Under the pieces are notes generated by a model. The model did no database searches and was not told where the DNA came from. It saw nothing but the letters and a program-made list of their open reading frames with translations. Positions 8,610 through 16,607 of a DNA stretch of 64,000 bases are shown here, piece by piece. A program made the position numbers and the translations under genes. Position 1 is the first letter of the stretch; every line of letters begins with the position of its first letter. Origin of the DNA: a virus (lineage: Duplodnaviria; Caudoviricetes); the IMG/VR virus record IMGVR_UViG_3300033121_001941, positions 24,657 to 88,656 of that record; one strand, written 5' to 3'.

Positions 8610-8684
8610 GGCCCAATCTAACTAATTGGTTCAGGTGGGCGTCCTCTCAAGACGCAGGTGTGGGTTCAATTCCCATTTGGGTCA
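8610..8684 (+). tRNA. trnE: tRNA-Glu(CTC)
   Basis: GGCCCAA/TTGGGTC acceptor; GCGTC-CTCTCAA-GACGC anticodon arm; GTGGG-TTCAATT-CCCAT T arm. Confidence 0.85.
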
Positions 8685-8864
8685 CAAATTCAGAATTAAC
8701 GATAATGAAAACTTTAATGACAAACAAACTGAACGAAAGAACATCTAACATGTTTTCGCTCTTTAGTCATTCAGTTTTAGGGCGTTTGCCTGAAACAAAT
8801 CCACGTCCCTTAAAGGGTTGAAAAGTGGTTCCGGTAAGAGACACCCGGTAAAAAGATAAGTTAG

Positions 8865-8937
8865 CGGGGTATAGCGTAACCTGGTAGCGCGTTTGCTTTG
8901 GGAGCAAATAGTTTCAGTTCAAATCTGAATACCCCGA
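8865..8937 (+). tRNA. trnP: tRNA-Pro(TGG)
   Basis: CGGGGTA/TACCCCG acceptor; TTTGC-TTTGGGA-GCAAA anticodon arm. Confidence 0.9.
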
Positions 8938-8979
8938 CGAAGAAGAAATTCTTTGTTCATTGACAATCTATATTCCTAA

Positions 8980-9052
8980 CGACGTGTCGCCTAGTGGCTA
9001 AGGCATCTTCCTTACAAGGAGAATATCATGGGTTCGAGTCCCATCTCGTCGA
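8980..9052 (+). tRNA. trnV: tRNA-Val(TAC)
   Basis: TCTTC-CTTACAA-GGAGA anticodon arm; ATGGG-TTCGAGT-CCCAT T arm. Confidence 0.9.
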
Positions 9053-9054
9053 CG

Positions 9055-9187
9055 ATGTAATGAGACCTGGGTGGGCTTTGTGTACTACCCGATCTGTACG
9101 TTCGATTCGTACGTGTTTTTACTTACGTTTAAATATTAATGGTTAGATCACCAACGCACAAGAGTTGTTCGATTCAACAATTACATT
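9055..9187 (+). ncRNA. tRNA-like structured RNA with two TTCGATT T-loop hairpins
   Basis: ATGTAAT/ATTACAT terminal stem; GTACG-TTCGATT-CGTAC and GTTG-TTCGATT-CAAC hairpins; GATCT/AGATC and GGGTGG/CTACCC helices. Confidence 0.5.
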
Positions 9188-9189
9188 AA

Positions 9190-9262
9190 CAGAGTGTAAG
9201 TTAAAGAAAAAACGGCTTATCATATGGGATAAGAGATGTTGGTGCAAATCCAATCACTTTGA
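9190..9262 (+). tRNA. atypical tRNA-Pro-like gene (8-nt anticodon loop; possibly pseudo)
   Basis: CAGAGTG/CACTTTG acceptor with A73; CTTAT-CATATGGG-ATAAG arm; T-loop TGCAAAT; D-loop lacks GG. Confidence 0.55.
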
Positions 9263-9369
9263 CAAATCTGAGACCGAAACACGTCGATCCAATTGGACGA
9301 AGGTCAGCGAGGAATAATTTCCTGTCAGCGTTGTGTCATTGATAGCGATCTTGTGATTTTTATCAATAT

Positions 9370-9443
9370 CAGTTACATGGGGAGGTAGCGCCCTACTTGG
9401 TCTGGACCCAAGAATAGGCTCAGTGCAATTCTGAGGTAACTGA
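9370..9443 (+). tRNA. atypical tRNA-Pro(TGG)-like gene (C33, A37)
   Basis: CAGTTAC/GTAACTG acceptor with A73; CTTGG-TCTGGAC-CCAAG arm; CTCAG-TGCAATT-CTGAG T arm. Confidence 0.65.
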
Positions 9444-9444
9444 C

Positions 9445-9518
9445 GGTGTTTGTAGTGTACCGGCTGTGCATAGTAGACTGTGAATCTAAAGGTGAGGGTT
9501 CGACCCCCTCCATTCACC
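9445..9518 (+). tRNA. trnH: tRNA-His(GTG)
   Basis: G-1:C73 pair; loop CTGTGAA; GAGGG-TTCGACC-CCCTC T arm. Confidence 0.88.
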
Positions 9519-9587
9519 CGAAATTAAATGTAGTTTTCATGAAAATTATTTGTGCAAAATTCAATTCATTAAACTTATAAATAAACC

Positions 9588-9989
9588 ATGTCATTTTTAA
9601 AAGAATCATATGATGAAGTGCACAACAAAGTGAAAACACTTATCAATGATGTTGACTGTCTTCCTGATTGGGAAACAATGATTGAATATGAGTTCATTCG
9701 GAACGAAGGAAAATTTAATATGTTTTCACTTTGTTCACACGAAATTCAACGTTATGCCTTTGACCATGGTCTTTATCATCTTGTAACATGGATTGATTTA
9801 ATCAAAAGAACAAAATGCAATTATCTTTTGAATTTAGAAAAAGCATATCAATATTATGAATCAGTTCACGGGAAAAGAGAAAAATGGATTACTGATGATC
9901 TTAAACATAAGGTTAAAATCACCATCAAAGAAAATAAAATTCGTCAATTAAAAGAAGAACTACAACGCTTAGAACAAGACGATGATTAA
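9588..9989 (+). CDS. hypothetical protein
   Basis: 133-aa ORF with coiled-coil-like C-terminus. Confidence 0.65.
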   Translation: MSFLKESYDEVHNKVKTLINDVDCLPDWETMIEYEFIRNEGKFNMFSLCSHEIQRYAFDHGLYHLVTWIDLIKRTKCNYLLNLEKAYQYYESVHGKREKWITDDLKHKVKITIKENKIRQLKEELQRLEQDDD

Positions 9990-10041
9990 AATATTTGACA
10001 AATCATTATCAAACGTAATATATATCTAGGGATTAGGTTAT

Positions 10042-10302
10042 ATGTTTTTCACAGTGTCAATTAAAAATCATGGATATGGAGCTGATTACTTAGCTGTTTT
10101 TAATTCAAAAGACGAAGCATTAAATGCTGCGCTAAATTTGTTAGATAAACACGCTGCCCAGGGTGACATGTATATAGATGACGGAGAGGTAGTACCTGAT
10201 GAAGAAGAAAAAATCTTCGTTGGTGGACCATATAAAGAAGGTACAAATCTCATAACACAAACCAATCAAAAATCTCTTAAATCTATTTTAAGTCAAAAAT
10301 AA
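10042..10302 (+). CDS. hypothetical protein
   Basis: 86-aa ORF. Confidence 0.6.
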   Translation: MFFTVSIKNHGYGADYLAVFNSKDEALNAALNLLDKHAAQGDMYIDDGEVVPDEEEKIFVGGPYKEGTNLITQTNQKSLKSILSQK

Positions 10303-10308
10303 TATATT

Positions 10309-10384
10309 GCTCTTCTAGCTGATATGGTTTTAGCGCAAGTTTGAAAAACTTGAGATGTCGGTTCGATTCCGACGGGGAGCACCA
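10309..10384 (+). tRNA. trnF: tRNA-Phe(GAA)
   Basis: CAAGT-TTGAAAA-ACTTG anticodon arm; CCA encoded. Confidence 0.92.
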
Positions 10385-10453
10385 ACATATTTATGTAAAT
10401 AACGCTTGATATCGTCTTTGATTCGTATAATTACGATAGAATTTGAGGATGAT

Positions 10454-15111: not shown

Positions 15112-15204
15112 CACGATTCATAGTTGAATATGATGGTAACAATTTGTAATAAACGGGCGGGTAAAACTCTCGTTAAATCAAATTAACATTATGTGAAAGT
15201 TTTT

Positions 15205-15277
15205 GCCCACGTAGTCTAATGGATCAGGCCACCGGCTTCTATCCGGTTATATGTAGGTTCGAGTCCTACCGTGGGTG
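15205..15277 (+). tRNA. trnR: tRNA-Arg(TCT)
   Basis: ACCGG-CTTCTAT-CCGGT anticodon arm. Confidence 0.92.
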
Positions 15278-15298
15278 CTAGTTATGAGCGGAGGAATC

Positions 15299-15685
15299 AT
15301 GTCAAATATAAAAATGGTGATTGCAGTTCGAAAAGATCTCTCGATGAGAAAAGGAAAACTTGCCGCTCAGGTTGCACATGCTTCTATGAAATTCTTAACA
15401 GATAATAATGAATCAGAACGAGGTGATGAATTATATGTGAAACTTTCCCCAGAAGAAACAGTATGGATGACAGGTTCTTTTACAAAAATTGTCGTTGGCG
15501 TAGAATCACAAGACGCCTTAGAGCATCTTATGTTTCTTGCACAACTAGAGGGAATCGAAGCACATTCAGTTGTTGATTTAGGTAAAACAGAATTTAATGG
15601 AATCCCAACGTTAACTTGTGCGGCGTTTGGACCGTGTGAAGAAGAGCAATTAAATAAATTGACAGGTCATCTTAAGTTATTATAA
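15299..15685 (+). CDS. pth2: peptidyl-tRNA hydrolase, Pth2 type
   Basis: KMVIAVRKDLSMRKGKLAAQVAHAS, KIVV, DLGKTEF, LTGHLKLL; GGAGG RBS. Confidence 0.92.
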   Translation: MSNIKMVIAVRKDLSMRKGKLAAQVAHASMKFLTDNNESERGDELYVKLSPEETVWMTGSFTKIVVGVESQDALEHLMFLAQLEGIEAHSVVDLGKTEFNGIPTLTCAAFGPCEEEQLNKLTGHLKLL

Positions 15686-15735
15686 TTTCTTTAACAAGAA
15701 TATTCTTGAGTTAATCTATGGGCAGTAAATTGAAT

Positions 15736-15821
15736 GGAAATATGTGTGAGATGGCTTAAACAGCAAATTTGCTAAATTTGTGAACGTAAAAGTTCCGTAG
15801 GTTCGAATCCTACTATTTCCG
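15736..15821 (+). tRNA. trnS: tRNA-Ser(GCT)
   Basis: CAAAT-TTGCTAA-ATTTG arm; long variable arm; G73. Confidence 0.9.
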
Positions 15822-15833
15822 CAATGTGTACAT

Positions 15834-15923
15834 GGAAGTTTTGGGAATTGGCAATCCCAACAGTCTTGAAAACTGTCAGGCGCGATGAGCGTCTTAGGAG
15901 TTCGACTCTCCTAGCTTCCTCCA
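15834..15923 (+). tRNA. trnS: tRNA-Ser(TGA)
   Basis: ACAGT-CTTGAAA-ACTGT arm; long variable arm; CCA encoded; U73. Confidence 0.88.
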
Positions 15924-15924
15924 A

Positions 15925-16083
15925 ATGTTAAAGAAAATTGAAATCAAAAAAAATGATGAACCTTGTTTTGACAGAGAACATAATCCTCCCAACATGATAG
16001 TGTATAAACCTGGGACGTATGAATATACGTGTCCAACATGCAAAAAGAAAATTATTTTTACAGTAAATGGTGTAATTTCTTAA
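15925..16083 (+). CDS. small Zn-ribbon-like phage protein (52 aa)
   Basis: Manual translation ...CFDREHNPPNMIVYKPGTYEYTCPTC... Confidence 0.6.
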   Translation: MLKKIEIKKNDEPCFDREHNPPNMIVYKPGTYEYTCPTCKKKIIFTVNGVIS

Positions 16084-16105
16084 ATTCAAGAATATATTGA
16101 ATTAT

Positions 16106-16177
16106 GCAGTAATAATTCAACGGTAGAATTTTACGTTGCCAGCGTAAATGTTGTGAGTTCGAATCTCACTTACTGCT
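16106..16177 (+). tRNA. trnG: tRNA-Gly(GCC)
   Basis: TTACG-TTGCCAG-CGTAA arm; U73. Confidence 0.92.
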
Positions 16178-16232
16178 CAACATATAGTAACCTTAAAAAC
16201 TATTAATTTGAACAATAGGTGAAATGTGTTAT

Positions 16233-16304
16233 GCGGGTTTGGTATAGTGGTTTGTGCCCGAGGTTTCCAACCTTGAGAGATCTGTTCGATCCAGATAATC
16301 CGCT
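16233..16304 (+). tRNA. trnG: tRNA-Gly(TCC)
   Basis: CGAGG-TTTCCAA-CCTTG arm; U73. Confidence 0.9.
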
Positions 16305-16306
16305 CG

Positions 16307-16507
16307 ATGAAAAAACAAAAAAATAGAAAATATACACTAGAACAAATTGATGCAATGAATCGTCAATTATTTCTAGTTAATTCTGAATATTATTATGTTT
16401 TGTTTGAAGGACGTCTTTGTAAAGAAAAACGTCAATATTGGGAAATTCCTAAAATTCAAGAAAAAGAATTCTTATATGAAAATTTAGGTTCAACATCGGT
16501 ATGTTAG
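16307..16507 (+). CDS. hypothetical protein
   Basis: 66-aa ORF between tRNA genes. Confidence 0.5.
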   Translation: MKKQKNRKYTLEQIDAMNRQLFLVNSEYYYVLFEGRLCKEKRQYWEIPKIQEKEFLYENLGSTSVC

Positions 16508-16519
16508 GAATATAGAAAT

Positions 16520-16604
16520 GCTATCCTGATGGAATGGTAGACATGCTTGTTTCAAAAACAAGTTCTCACAAACGGGAGTAAGGGTTCAATTCCCTTGGGT
16601 AGCA
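16520..16604 (+). tRNA. trnL: tRNA-Leu(CAA)
   Basis: CTTGT-TTCAAAA-ACAAG arm; long variable arm. Confidence 0.9.
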
Positions 16605-16607
16605 CAA

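Follow-up and report, generated by a model that had tools for sequence, protein, structure and literature searches.

tRNA genes of the array and their 3' ends

The DNA analyzed here (the window) is a stretch of 64,000 nucleotides from a virus of the Caudoviricetes (IMG/VR record IMGVR_UViG_3300033121_001941, positions 24,657 to 88,656). It makes up the final 64 kb of a viral contig of 88.6 kb, and its subject of interest is the 3' ends of the tRNA genes that it carries. The guanine-plus-cytosine (GC) content of the contig is 34%, and CheckV estimated its completeness at 26%, which makes it a fragment of a jumbo phage. ARAGORN found 23 tRNA genes at window positions 8610-16605, all on the plus strand, and the same contig holds 11 further tRNA genes upstream of the window. 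The tail of each gene, that is, the three bases (positions 74 to 76) after the discriminator (N73), was read after pairing the acceptor stems. The array and its genes are listed below with strand and tail.

8610..16607, +, array: 23 tRNA genes with protein genes in between; C74 in 23/23, A76 in 20/23, C75 in 3/23
8610..8687, +, tRNA-Glu(CTC), discriminator A8684, tail CAA
8865..8940, +, tRNA-Pro(TGG), discriminator A8937, tail CGA
8980..9055, +, tRNA-Val(TAC), discriminator A9052, tail CGA
9370..9444, +, tRNA-Pro(TGG), discriminator A9443, C74 at 9444, followed directly by G9445 (G-1 of tRNA-His)
9445..9521, +, tRNA-His(GTG), G-1 at 9445, discriminator C9518, tail CGA
10309..10384, +, tRNA-Phe(GAA), full CCA templated
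11707..11780, +, tRNA-Thr(GGT), tail CAA
11840..11926, +, tRNA-Leu(TAA), tail CTT
12037..12111, +, tRNA-Thr(CGT), tail CGT
12115..12188, +, tRNA-Thr(TGT), tail CTA
12324..12399, +, tRNA-Glu(TTC), full CCA templated
12429..12514, +, tRNA-Leu(AAG), tail CAA
12517..12592, +, tRNA-Arg(TCG), tail CAA
12594..12672, +, tRNA-Phe(AAA), weak Rfam score (33.8 bits), tail CGA
13954..14030, +, tRNA-Leu(TAG), tail CAA
14033..14108, +, tRNA-Met(CAT), tail CGA
14111..14186, +, tRNA-Arg(ACG), tail CTA
15205..15280, +, tRNA-Arg(TCT), tail CTA
15736..15824, +, tRNA-Ser(GCT), tail CAA
15834..15923, +, tRNA-Ser(TGA), full CCA templated
16106..16180, +, tRNA-Gly(GCC), tail CAA
16233..16307, +, tRNA-Gly(TCC), tail CGA
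16520..16607, +, tRNA-Leu(CAA), tail CAA

The register of these genes was examined with the Rfam model RF00005. Its matches stopped at the discriminator, one base before the ARAGORN end, or three bases before it where CCA is encoded. Because the model itself ends at the discriminator, the tRNA register is independent of the 3' tail. The acceptor stems of the window tRNAs were paired at 6-7 of 7 positions, except that of tRNA-His (5/7). Where letters match CCA, ARAGORN adds them to its calls, and an apparent C74 might therefore be a C added by the finder. However, the Rfam model agreed on every gene, the stems paired as described, and the same script returned TTT, AAA and similar tails in other lineages and CCA in Xanthomonas jumbo phage XacN1, so that such an artefact is highly improbable.

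The 23 window tails were CAA (8), CGA (6), CTA (3), CCA (3), and CGG, CTT and CGT (1 each), while those of the 11 upstream genes were CAA (5), CGA (2), CCA (2), CTT (1) and CTG (1). Thus 29 of the 34 tRNA genes on the contig lacked a full CCA and five kept it. An earlier note, made from the sequence alone, had suggested that C74 and A76 are kept beyond chance, and this was borne out. Against the contig composition (A.328, C.169, G.172, T.331), C74 was present in 34/34 genes (p=6e-27) and A76 in 29/34 (p=4e-10); A77 was mildly enriched (19/34, 56%). The tally in that note covered 25 genes. It agreed with ours for the 23 canonical genes, but one extra CAA and one extra CTA, assigned to two "atypical" genes, could not be located. 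The note had also proposed a specific loss of C75. The data showed C75 in 5/34 genes (14.7%), compared with a background of 16.9% (p=1.0; chi-square for the whole column, p=0.12). Since C75 occurs at the level of base composition, position 75 is unconstrained and not specifically lost. The pattern on the contig is a fixed C74, a free position 75 and a favoured A76.

Tails and gene spacing in related phages

Related phages were collected by a PTH2 profile search, which gave 80 viral loci, and by exact look-ups, which gave five more syntenic contigs. Synteny was judged by the shared order of NADAR, PTH2, RNA ligase and a large reverse-strand protein, and the order NADAR, PTH2, ligase was kept in relatives of 110-370 kb. 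When the array was compared with 50,697 phage records at near identity, no match emerged. The GMP reductase gene led to unrelated phages without tRNA arrays and was rejected as a guide to relatives, and no viral relatives were obtained through the RNA ligase gene.

The tRNA tails of the related phages sorted into three classes: C-only, full CCA, and no preference for C74. Phages of the full-CCA class templated CCA in essentially every gene. The C-only class, including the present contig, comprised 24 non-redundant syntenic jumbo-phage contigs with a GC content of 34-66%. In this class C74 was present in 527/540 tRNAs (97.6%), C75 in 45% and A76 in 56%. The frequency of C75 ranged from 4% to 80% among the related phages and rose with genome GC (rho 0.48, p=0.018), while A76 fell with genome GC (rho -0.43, p=0.036) and G76 rose. 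This tally, which had been set beforehand as the test that could refute the idea of C75 loss, gave no position-75-specific bias. Letters 75 and 76 follow genome composition, giving CAA, CGA and CTA in AT-rich genomes and CCG, CTG and CCC in GC-rich ones. Strong selection acts on C74, position 75 is left free, and A76 is only weakly favoured.

The same data bear on pure mutational erosion of an ancestral CCA under AT pressure, in which C-N-A would be a transient state without function. The frequencies of C75 and A76 do follow genome GC, position 75 of the contig lies at base composition, and Buchnera has lost templated CCA under AT bias while its tRNAs still mature (PMC3439896). However, erosion could not preserve C74 in 34/34 genes of a genome that is 17% C, in 527/540 tRNAs of a clade spanning 34-66% GC, or in one-nucleotide spacers between genes. 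If it were driven by AT pressure, CTA, the product of a C-to-T change, should dominate; CAA and CGA do instead. Erosion is therefore quite improbable.

Equally improbable is selection to remove C75 or a genomic CCA, for example through RNase Z cleavability or evasion of a CCA-directed host factor. The earlier note had raised selection against a genomic CCA. C75 was below background in some relatives (L032, 1/27; L075, 1/21; L020, 1/14) and in sampled Bacteroidota genomes (6/62, compared with about 22% expected, p=0.01). However, C75 stood at background on the present contig, five genes kept CCA there, and full CCA was retained in up to 56% of the genes of GC-rich relatives. Moreover, the base that is retained, C74, has been reported as the stronger RNase Z anti-determinant (PMC3161902).

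We also analyzed the spacing of abutting tRNA genes. In the C-only class, 25 abutting pairs were set apart by exactly one nucleotide, a C, counted from the discriminator to the following 5' end. Gaps of 0, 2 and 3 nucleotides were rare (2, 1 and 2 examples), and at 4 nucleotides there was another peak, made up mostly of C-N-A-T. In contrast, full-CCA phage loci had no gap of less than 3 nucleotides between abutting tRNAs. Three of the 25 one-nucleotide pairs lie on the present contig, namely Pro-His (9444/9445, counting G-1) and, both upstream of the window, Trp-Gln and Met-Val. If RNase P cut at the downstream gene, the upstream tRNA, including the Met of Met-Val, would be left with an N73-C74 end. 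At the last pair (contig 18064-18211), the tRNA-Met gene ends T-CCA, and the CA of this end is also the first two bases of tRNA-Val, which gives an overlap of two bases.

The same tails in bacteria and the probable host

Tails of bacterial tRNA genes were read at loci around tuf, which carry the usual Thr-Tyr-Gly-Thr and Trp tRNA genes. C-only tails were found near tuf in Chitinophagales, Calditrichaceae, Polyangiales and Myxococcaceae, and no C74 was found in the tRNAs near tuf of Planctomycetota and Elusimicrobia. The counts for bacterial genomes and cultured phages are listed below.

Chitinophagales genome, GC 36%: C74 29/29, C75 5/29, A76 12/29; commonest tails CTA, CTT
29 sampled Bacteroidota genomes, GC mixed: C74 61/62, C75 6/62, A76 31/62; commonest tails CAA, CAT, CGA, CTA
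Polyangiales genome, GC 72%: C74 42/42, C75 28/42, A76 15/42; commonest tails CCA, CCG, CTG, CCC
Bacteroides phage crAss001 (cultured): C74 21/22, C75 3/22, A76 12/22 (55%); commonest tails CTA, CAA, CAT
Flavobacterium phage immuto (cultured): C74 3/3, C75 1/3, A76 2/3; tails CCA, CAG, CAA
Xanthomonas jumbo phage XacN1 (control), GC 53%: C74, C75 and A76 all 27/27; CCA only

The tail spectrum of the sampled Bacteroidota was that of the present phage, and the Polyangiales spectrum was that of the GC-rich relatives. Phage crAss001 is a member of an unrelated taxonomic order and contains one Met-His pair spaced by C alone. Since bacterial chromosomes and an unrelated cultured phage show C-only ends as well, the pattern is not specific to this phage group. 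A76 had been presented as the conserved partner of C74, a role that did not extend beyond the contig: its frequency was 56% in the phage clade, 50% in the Bacteroidota genomes and 55% in crAss001.

A Shine-Dalgarno-like core (GGAG/GAGG/AGGA) was present upstream of 5% of the 75 contig open reading frames (ORFs) of at least 120 amino acids, in effect the level of control windows (3-4%), and the ORF leaders on this contig were A-rich. Translation starts without a Shine-Dalgarno sequence are typical of Bacteroidota. The best cultured match of the baseplate wedge protein was Flavobacterium phage immuto, at a weak 29% identity. Because of the GC content of 34%, the lack of a Shine-Dalgarno signal and the Flavobacterium phage as nearest cultured relative, the phage probably infects Bacteroidota.

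We therefore favour, with a probability of about 75%, the explanation that these are functional tRNA genes of an ordinary kind that follow the style of the probable host lineage, the Bacteroidota, with the discriminator and C74 templated and the rest added after transcription. The tails most likely copy the tRNA-finishing system of the host and are not an invention of the phage. Transcription of the array would give multi-tRNA precursors, whose 5' ends would be cut by host RNase P. Where genes abut, the same RNase P cut would free an upstream tRNA ending in N73-C74, and elsewhere a host 3' nuclease would trim the trailer back to C74 or N73. C75 and A76 would then be attached by one CCA-adding enzyme, that of the host; complete jumbo relatives also carry their own. 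Of the specific 3'-maturation route proposed in the earlier note, the untemplated CCA end, the strong selection on C74 and the need for nucleotidyl transfer stood, and the abutting N73-C74 pairs fit it. A route peculiar to the phage did not stand, in view of the same ends in bacteria and in an unrelated cultured phage.

More tentatively, and at somewhat less than even odds, C74-only templating may represent an uncharacterised bacterial 3'-maturation route common to Bacteroidota, their relatives in the FCB group (Calditrichota) and Myxococcota. Precursors would be processed to N73-C74 and only CA would be added; phages with large tRNA sets would have to copy this form, so that letters 74-76 would report the host lineage.

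Several results weigh against a host-derived origin of the tails. A76 was more frequent on this contig (85%) than in the sampled Bacteroidota genomes (31/62, 50%; Fisher p=0.0008), and this excess leaves part of the C-N-A pattern that host convention alone does not explain. An A-rich trailer, a host genus with C-N-A tails (several sampled Bacteroidota genomes have CAA/CGA tails only) or weak selection are possible causes. The 88.6-kb contig, at 26% completeness, yielded no CCA-adding enzyme. Of the 31 sampled Bacteroidota genomes, 15 had a match to the bacterial-type RNase Z model TIGR02651 that exceeded the family cut-off, and C74 has been reported as the strongest RNase Z anti-determinant (PMC3161902); together these make a simple route through RNase Z awkward to uphold. 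The two Bacteroidota RNase P RNAs that were read had kept the J15/16-loop G that pairs with C75, which gives no covariation support to a role of RNase P in retaining C74. The Bacteroidota promoter consensus TTTG-N17-21-TAnnTTTG was not enriched in the window (5 occurrences, compared with 4.8 expected), nor was TAnnTTTG alone (109, compared with 95 expected). A Bacteroidota host fits the clues above but is unproven.

Processing enzymes and the reason for C74

C75 and A76 are required on the ribosome, and must therefore be added after transcription by a CCA-adding enzyme. Exactly one PolyA_pol-family enzyme was found in each of the 31 sampled Bacteroidota genomes, and one was found in relative G002. 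With a single enzyme of this family per genome, the suggested split into CC-adding and A-adding enzymes is not supported.

A class II nucleotidyltransferase is encoded by the two most complete C74-only relatives, as one 391-amino-acid gene in G002 and as a gene split into two ORFs in G001. EF-Tu, an RF-1-like gene, PTH2 and an Rnl1-like ligase are likewise present in the clade. These genes would suit a maturation route run by the phage itself, with C-only ends adapted to a jumbo-phage nucleotidyltransferase that perhaps needs a C74 primer. However, the same ends occur in bacterial chromosomes, and neither crAss001 nor immuto, which also have them, was found to encode its own nucleotidyltransferase. 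In addition, XacN1 encodes the enzyme yet has full CCA, and no nucleotidyltransferase was found in G003 (86% complete), which is C74-only. The proposal that the phage nucleotidyltransferase tracks tail class was rejected, as its presence and absence cross the classes. Since presence does not track tail type, the phage enzyme does not explain the tails, and a phage-autonomous route is unlikely. The class II nucleotidyltransferase of G001, G002, G009 and XacN1, which differ in tail class, looks like a general accessory for tRNA repair or maturation. In a 309-kb relative the nucleotidyltransferase, of the CCA-adding type, is split between L098:366-1241 (-) and L098:1438-1890 (-), about 200 bases apart, into an N-terminal ORF of 150 amino acids and a C-terminal ORF of 291 amino acids. 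The gap could be an intron or an intervening element, or the gene could be truly split.

Three kinds of reason for the templated C74 were considered under the host-style explanation. The leading candidate, itself short of even odds, is pairing with the conserved G of the GGU motif in J15/16 of RNase P RNA while the tail is still incomplete. In RNase P RNA, G293 is the pairing partner of C74, and cleavage slows by more than 100-fold when the substrate carries G74 (PMC1874595). The GGU motif was intact in Bacteroidota RNase P RNA (GGGUA in both RNAs read), which is compatible with this reason and not diagnostic of it. The second candidate, ranked close behind and drawn by analogy with chloroplasts, is that C74 may serve as a stop or cleavage point for a 3' nuclease. 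Some other reason, the third, is the least likely of the three. A study of the discriminator effect on CCA addition (PMC4477674) yielded nothing specific on C74.

Known systems, neighbouring genes and minor observations

A survey of tRNA genes in bacteria lists Bacteroidetes/Chlorobi, some Myxococcales, Cyanobacteria and Actinobacteria as groups in which CCA is not templated in most tRNA genes (Ardell & Hou 2016, PMC5143459). The present genes resemble those described there in that most lack CCA and would rely on a CCA-adding enzyme, and the same tails were found here in lineages that the survey names. A search of the survey by term returned no mention of partial templating or of a retained C74. 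Compared with CCA-less lineages such as Planctomycetota, the first C is near-invariant here and not there.

In chloroplasts, tRNA genes frequently carry a templated C74; chloroplast tRNase Z cleaves after this base, and nucleotidyltransferase finishes the end (PMC3161902). The present genes are alike in that C74 is encoded, the letters behind it vary freely, and what is missing would be supplied enzymatically. However, chloroplasts use a Thermotoga-type tRNase Z, whereas about half of the sampled Bacteroidota carry the ordinary bacterial type. In bacteria and phages, cleavage after C74 would be a putative step, hinted at indirectly by the 25 C-spaced phage pairs. Buchnera is alike in that a composition-driven change of tails is offset by CCA addition, but there about half of the genes have lost CCA, and that paper contains no C74 rule (PMC3439896).

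Phage T4 offers a further comparison. The CCA-less genes of its tRNA cluster need host 3' trimming and the host CCA-adding enzyme, and RNase P cuts the dimeric precursors. The present array would likewise need host finishing, but only some T4 genes are CCA-less and the T4 host templates CCA.

The finding is a new instance of partial-CCA tRNA genes, useful mainly as a host signature. The odd tails, together with the lack of Shine-Dalgarno sequences and the low GC content, point to a host with Bacteroidota-type ends and not to a new phage mechanism. The full-CCA, C-only and no-C74 classes match known or likely hosts, which provides a cheap clue to the host lineage of uncultured phages. The near-invariant C74 across two bacterial phyla and the one-nucleotide spacing raise the question of which enzyme needs that C, a question unaddressed in the literature searched.

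The following protein genes lie among or near the tRNA genes of the window, or carry homing-endonuclease features.

4869-6203, +, large HNH/homing-endonuclease-like gene, away from the array
7676-8482, -, GIY-YIG/NUMOD3 homing endonuclease, just upstream of the tRNA array
12643-13698, GMP-reductase-like gene, among the tRNA genes
14163-14681, SLOG/YspA-like gene, among the tRNA genes
14665-15111, NADAR gene, among the tRNA genes
15275-15685, PTH2 peptidyl-tRNA hydrolase gene, among the tRNA genes
17383-18606, Rnl1-like RNA ligase gene
43089-44567, -, large HNH/homing-endonuclease-like gene, away from the array

Within the array, an A occupies the first anticodon position in Phe(AAA) (12594-12669), Leu(AAG) (12429-12511) and Arg(ACG) (14111-14183), that of Phe(AAA) being unusual. 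Two bodies resembling tRNAs, at about 11600-11700 and 11935-12030, combine a D arm of the Leu type with a long variable arm and a perfect T arm. Their acceptor is only 4 bp long, with flanks AGTAAC ... GTGAA and no evident C74 after it. Rfam matched the body at 11935-12030 as a truncated tRNA (36.6 bits, model positions 5-66).

The tRNA island of the relatives contains an EF-Tu of 388 amino acids (L009:27-1193), which is at most 62% identical to the bacterial EF-Tu proteins found, along with a short protein that has an RF-1/PCRF domain (L012:6796-7323 and L015:1961-2548). A close bacterial donor was sought for the L009 EF-Tu and none was found; the best match, at 62% identity, was to a Nannocystaceae genome, followed by mixed phyla, which is a faint hint of Myxococcota for the GC-rich relatives. 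In the Polyangiales genome G042, contig C6 carries about 17 tRNA genes in 7 kb, all with C74 (308172-315002, loci L300 and L306), and this dense array may be a tRNA island or an integrated element.

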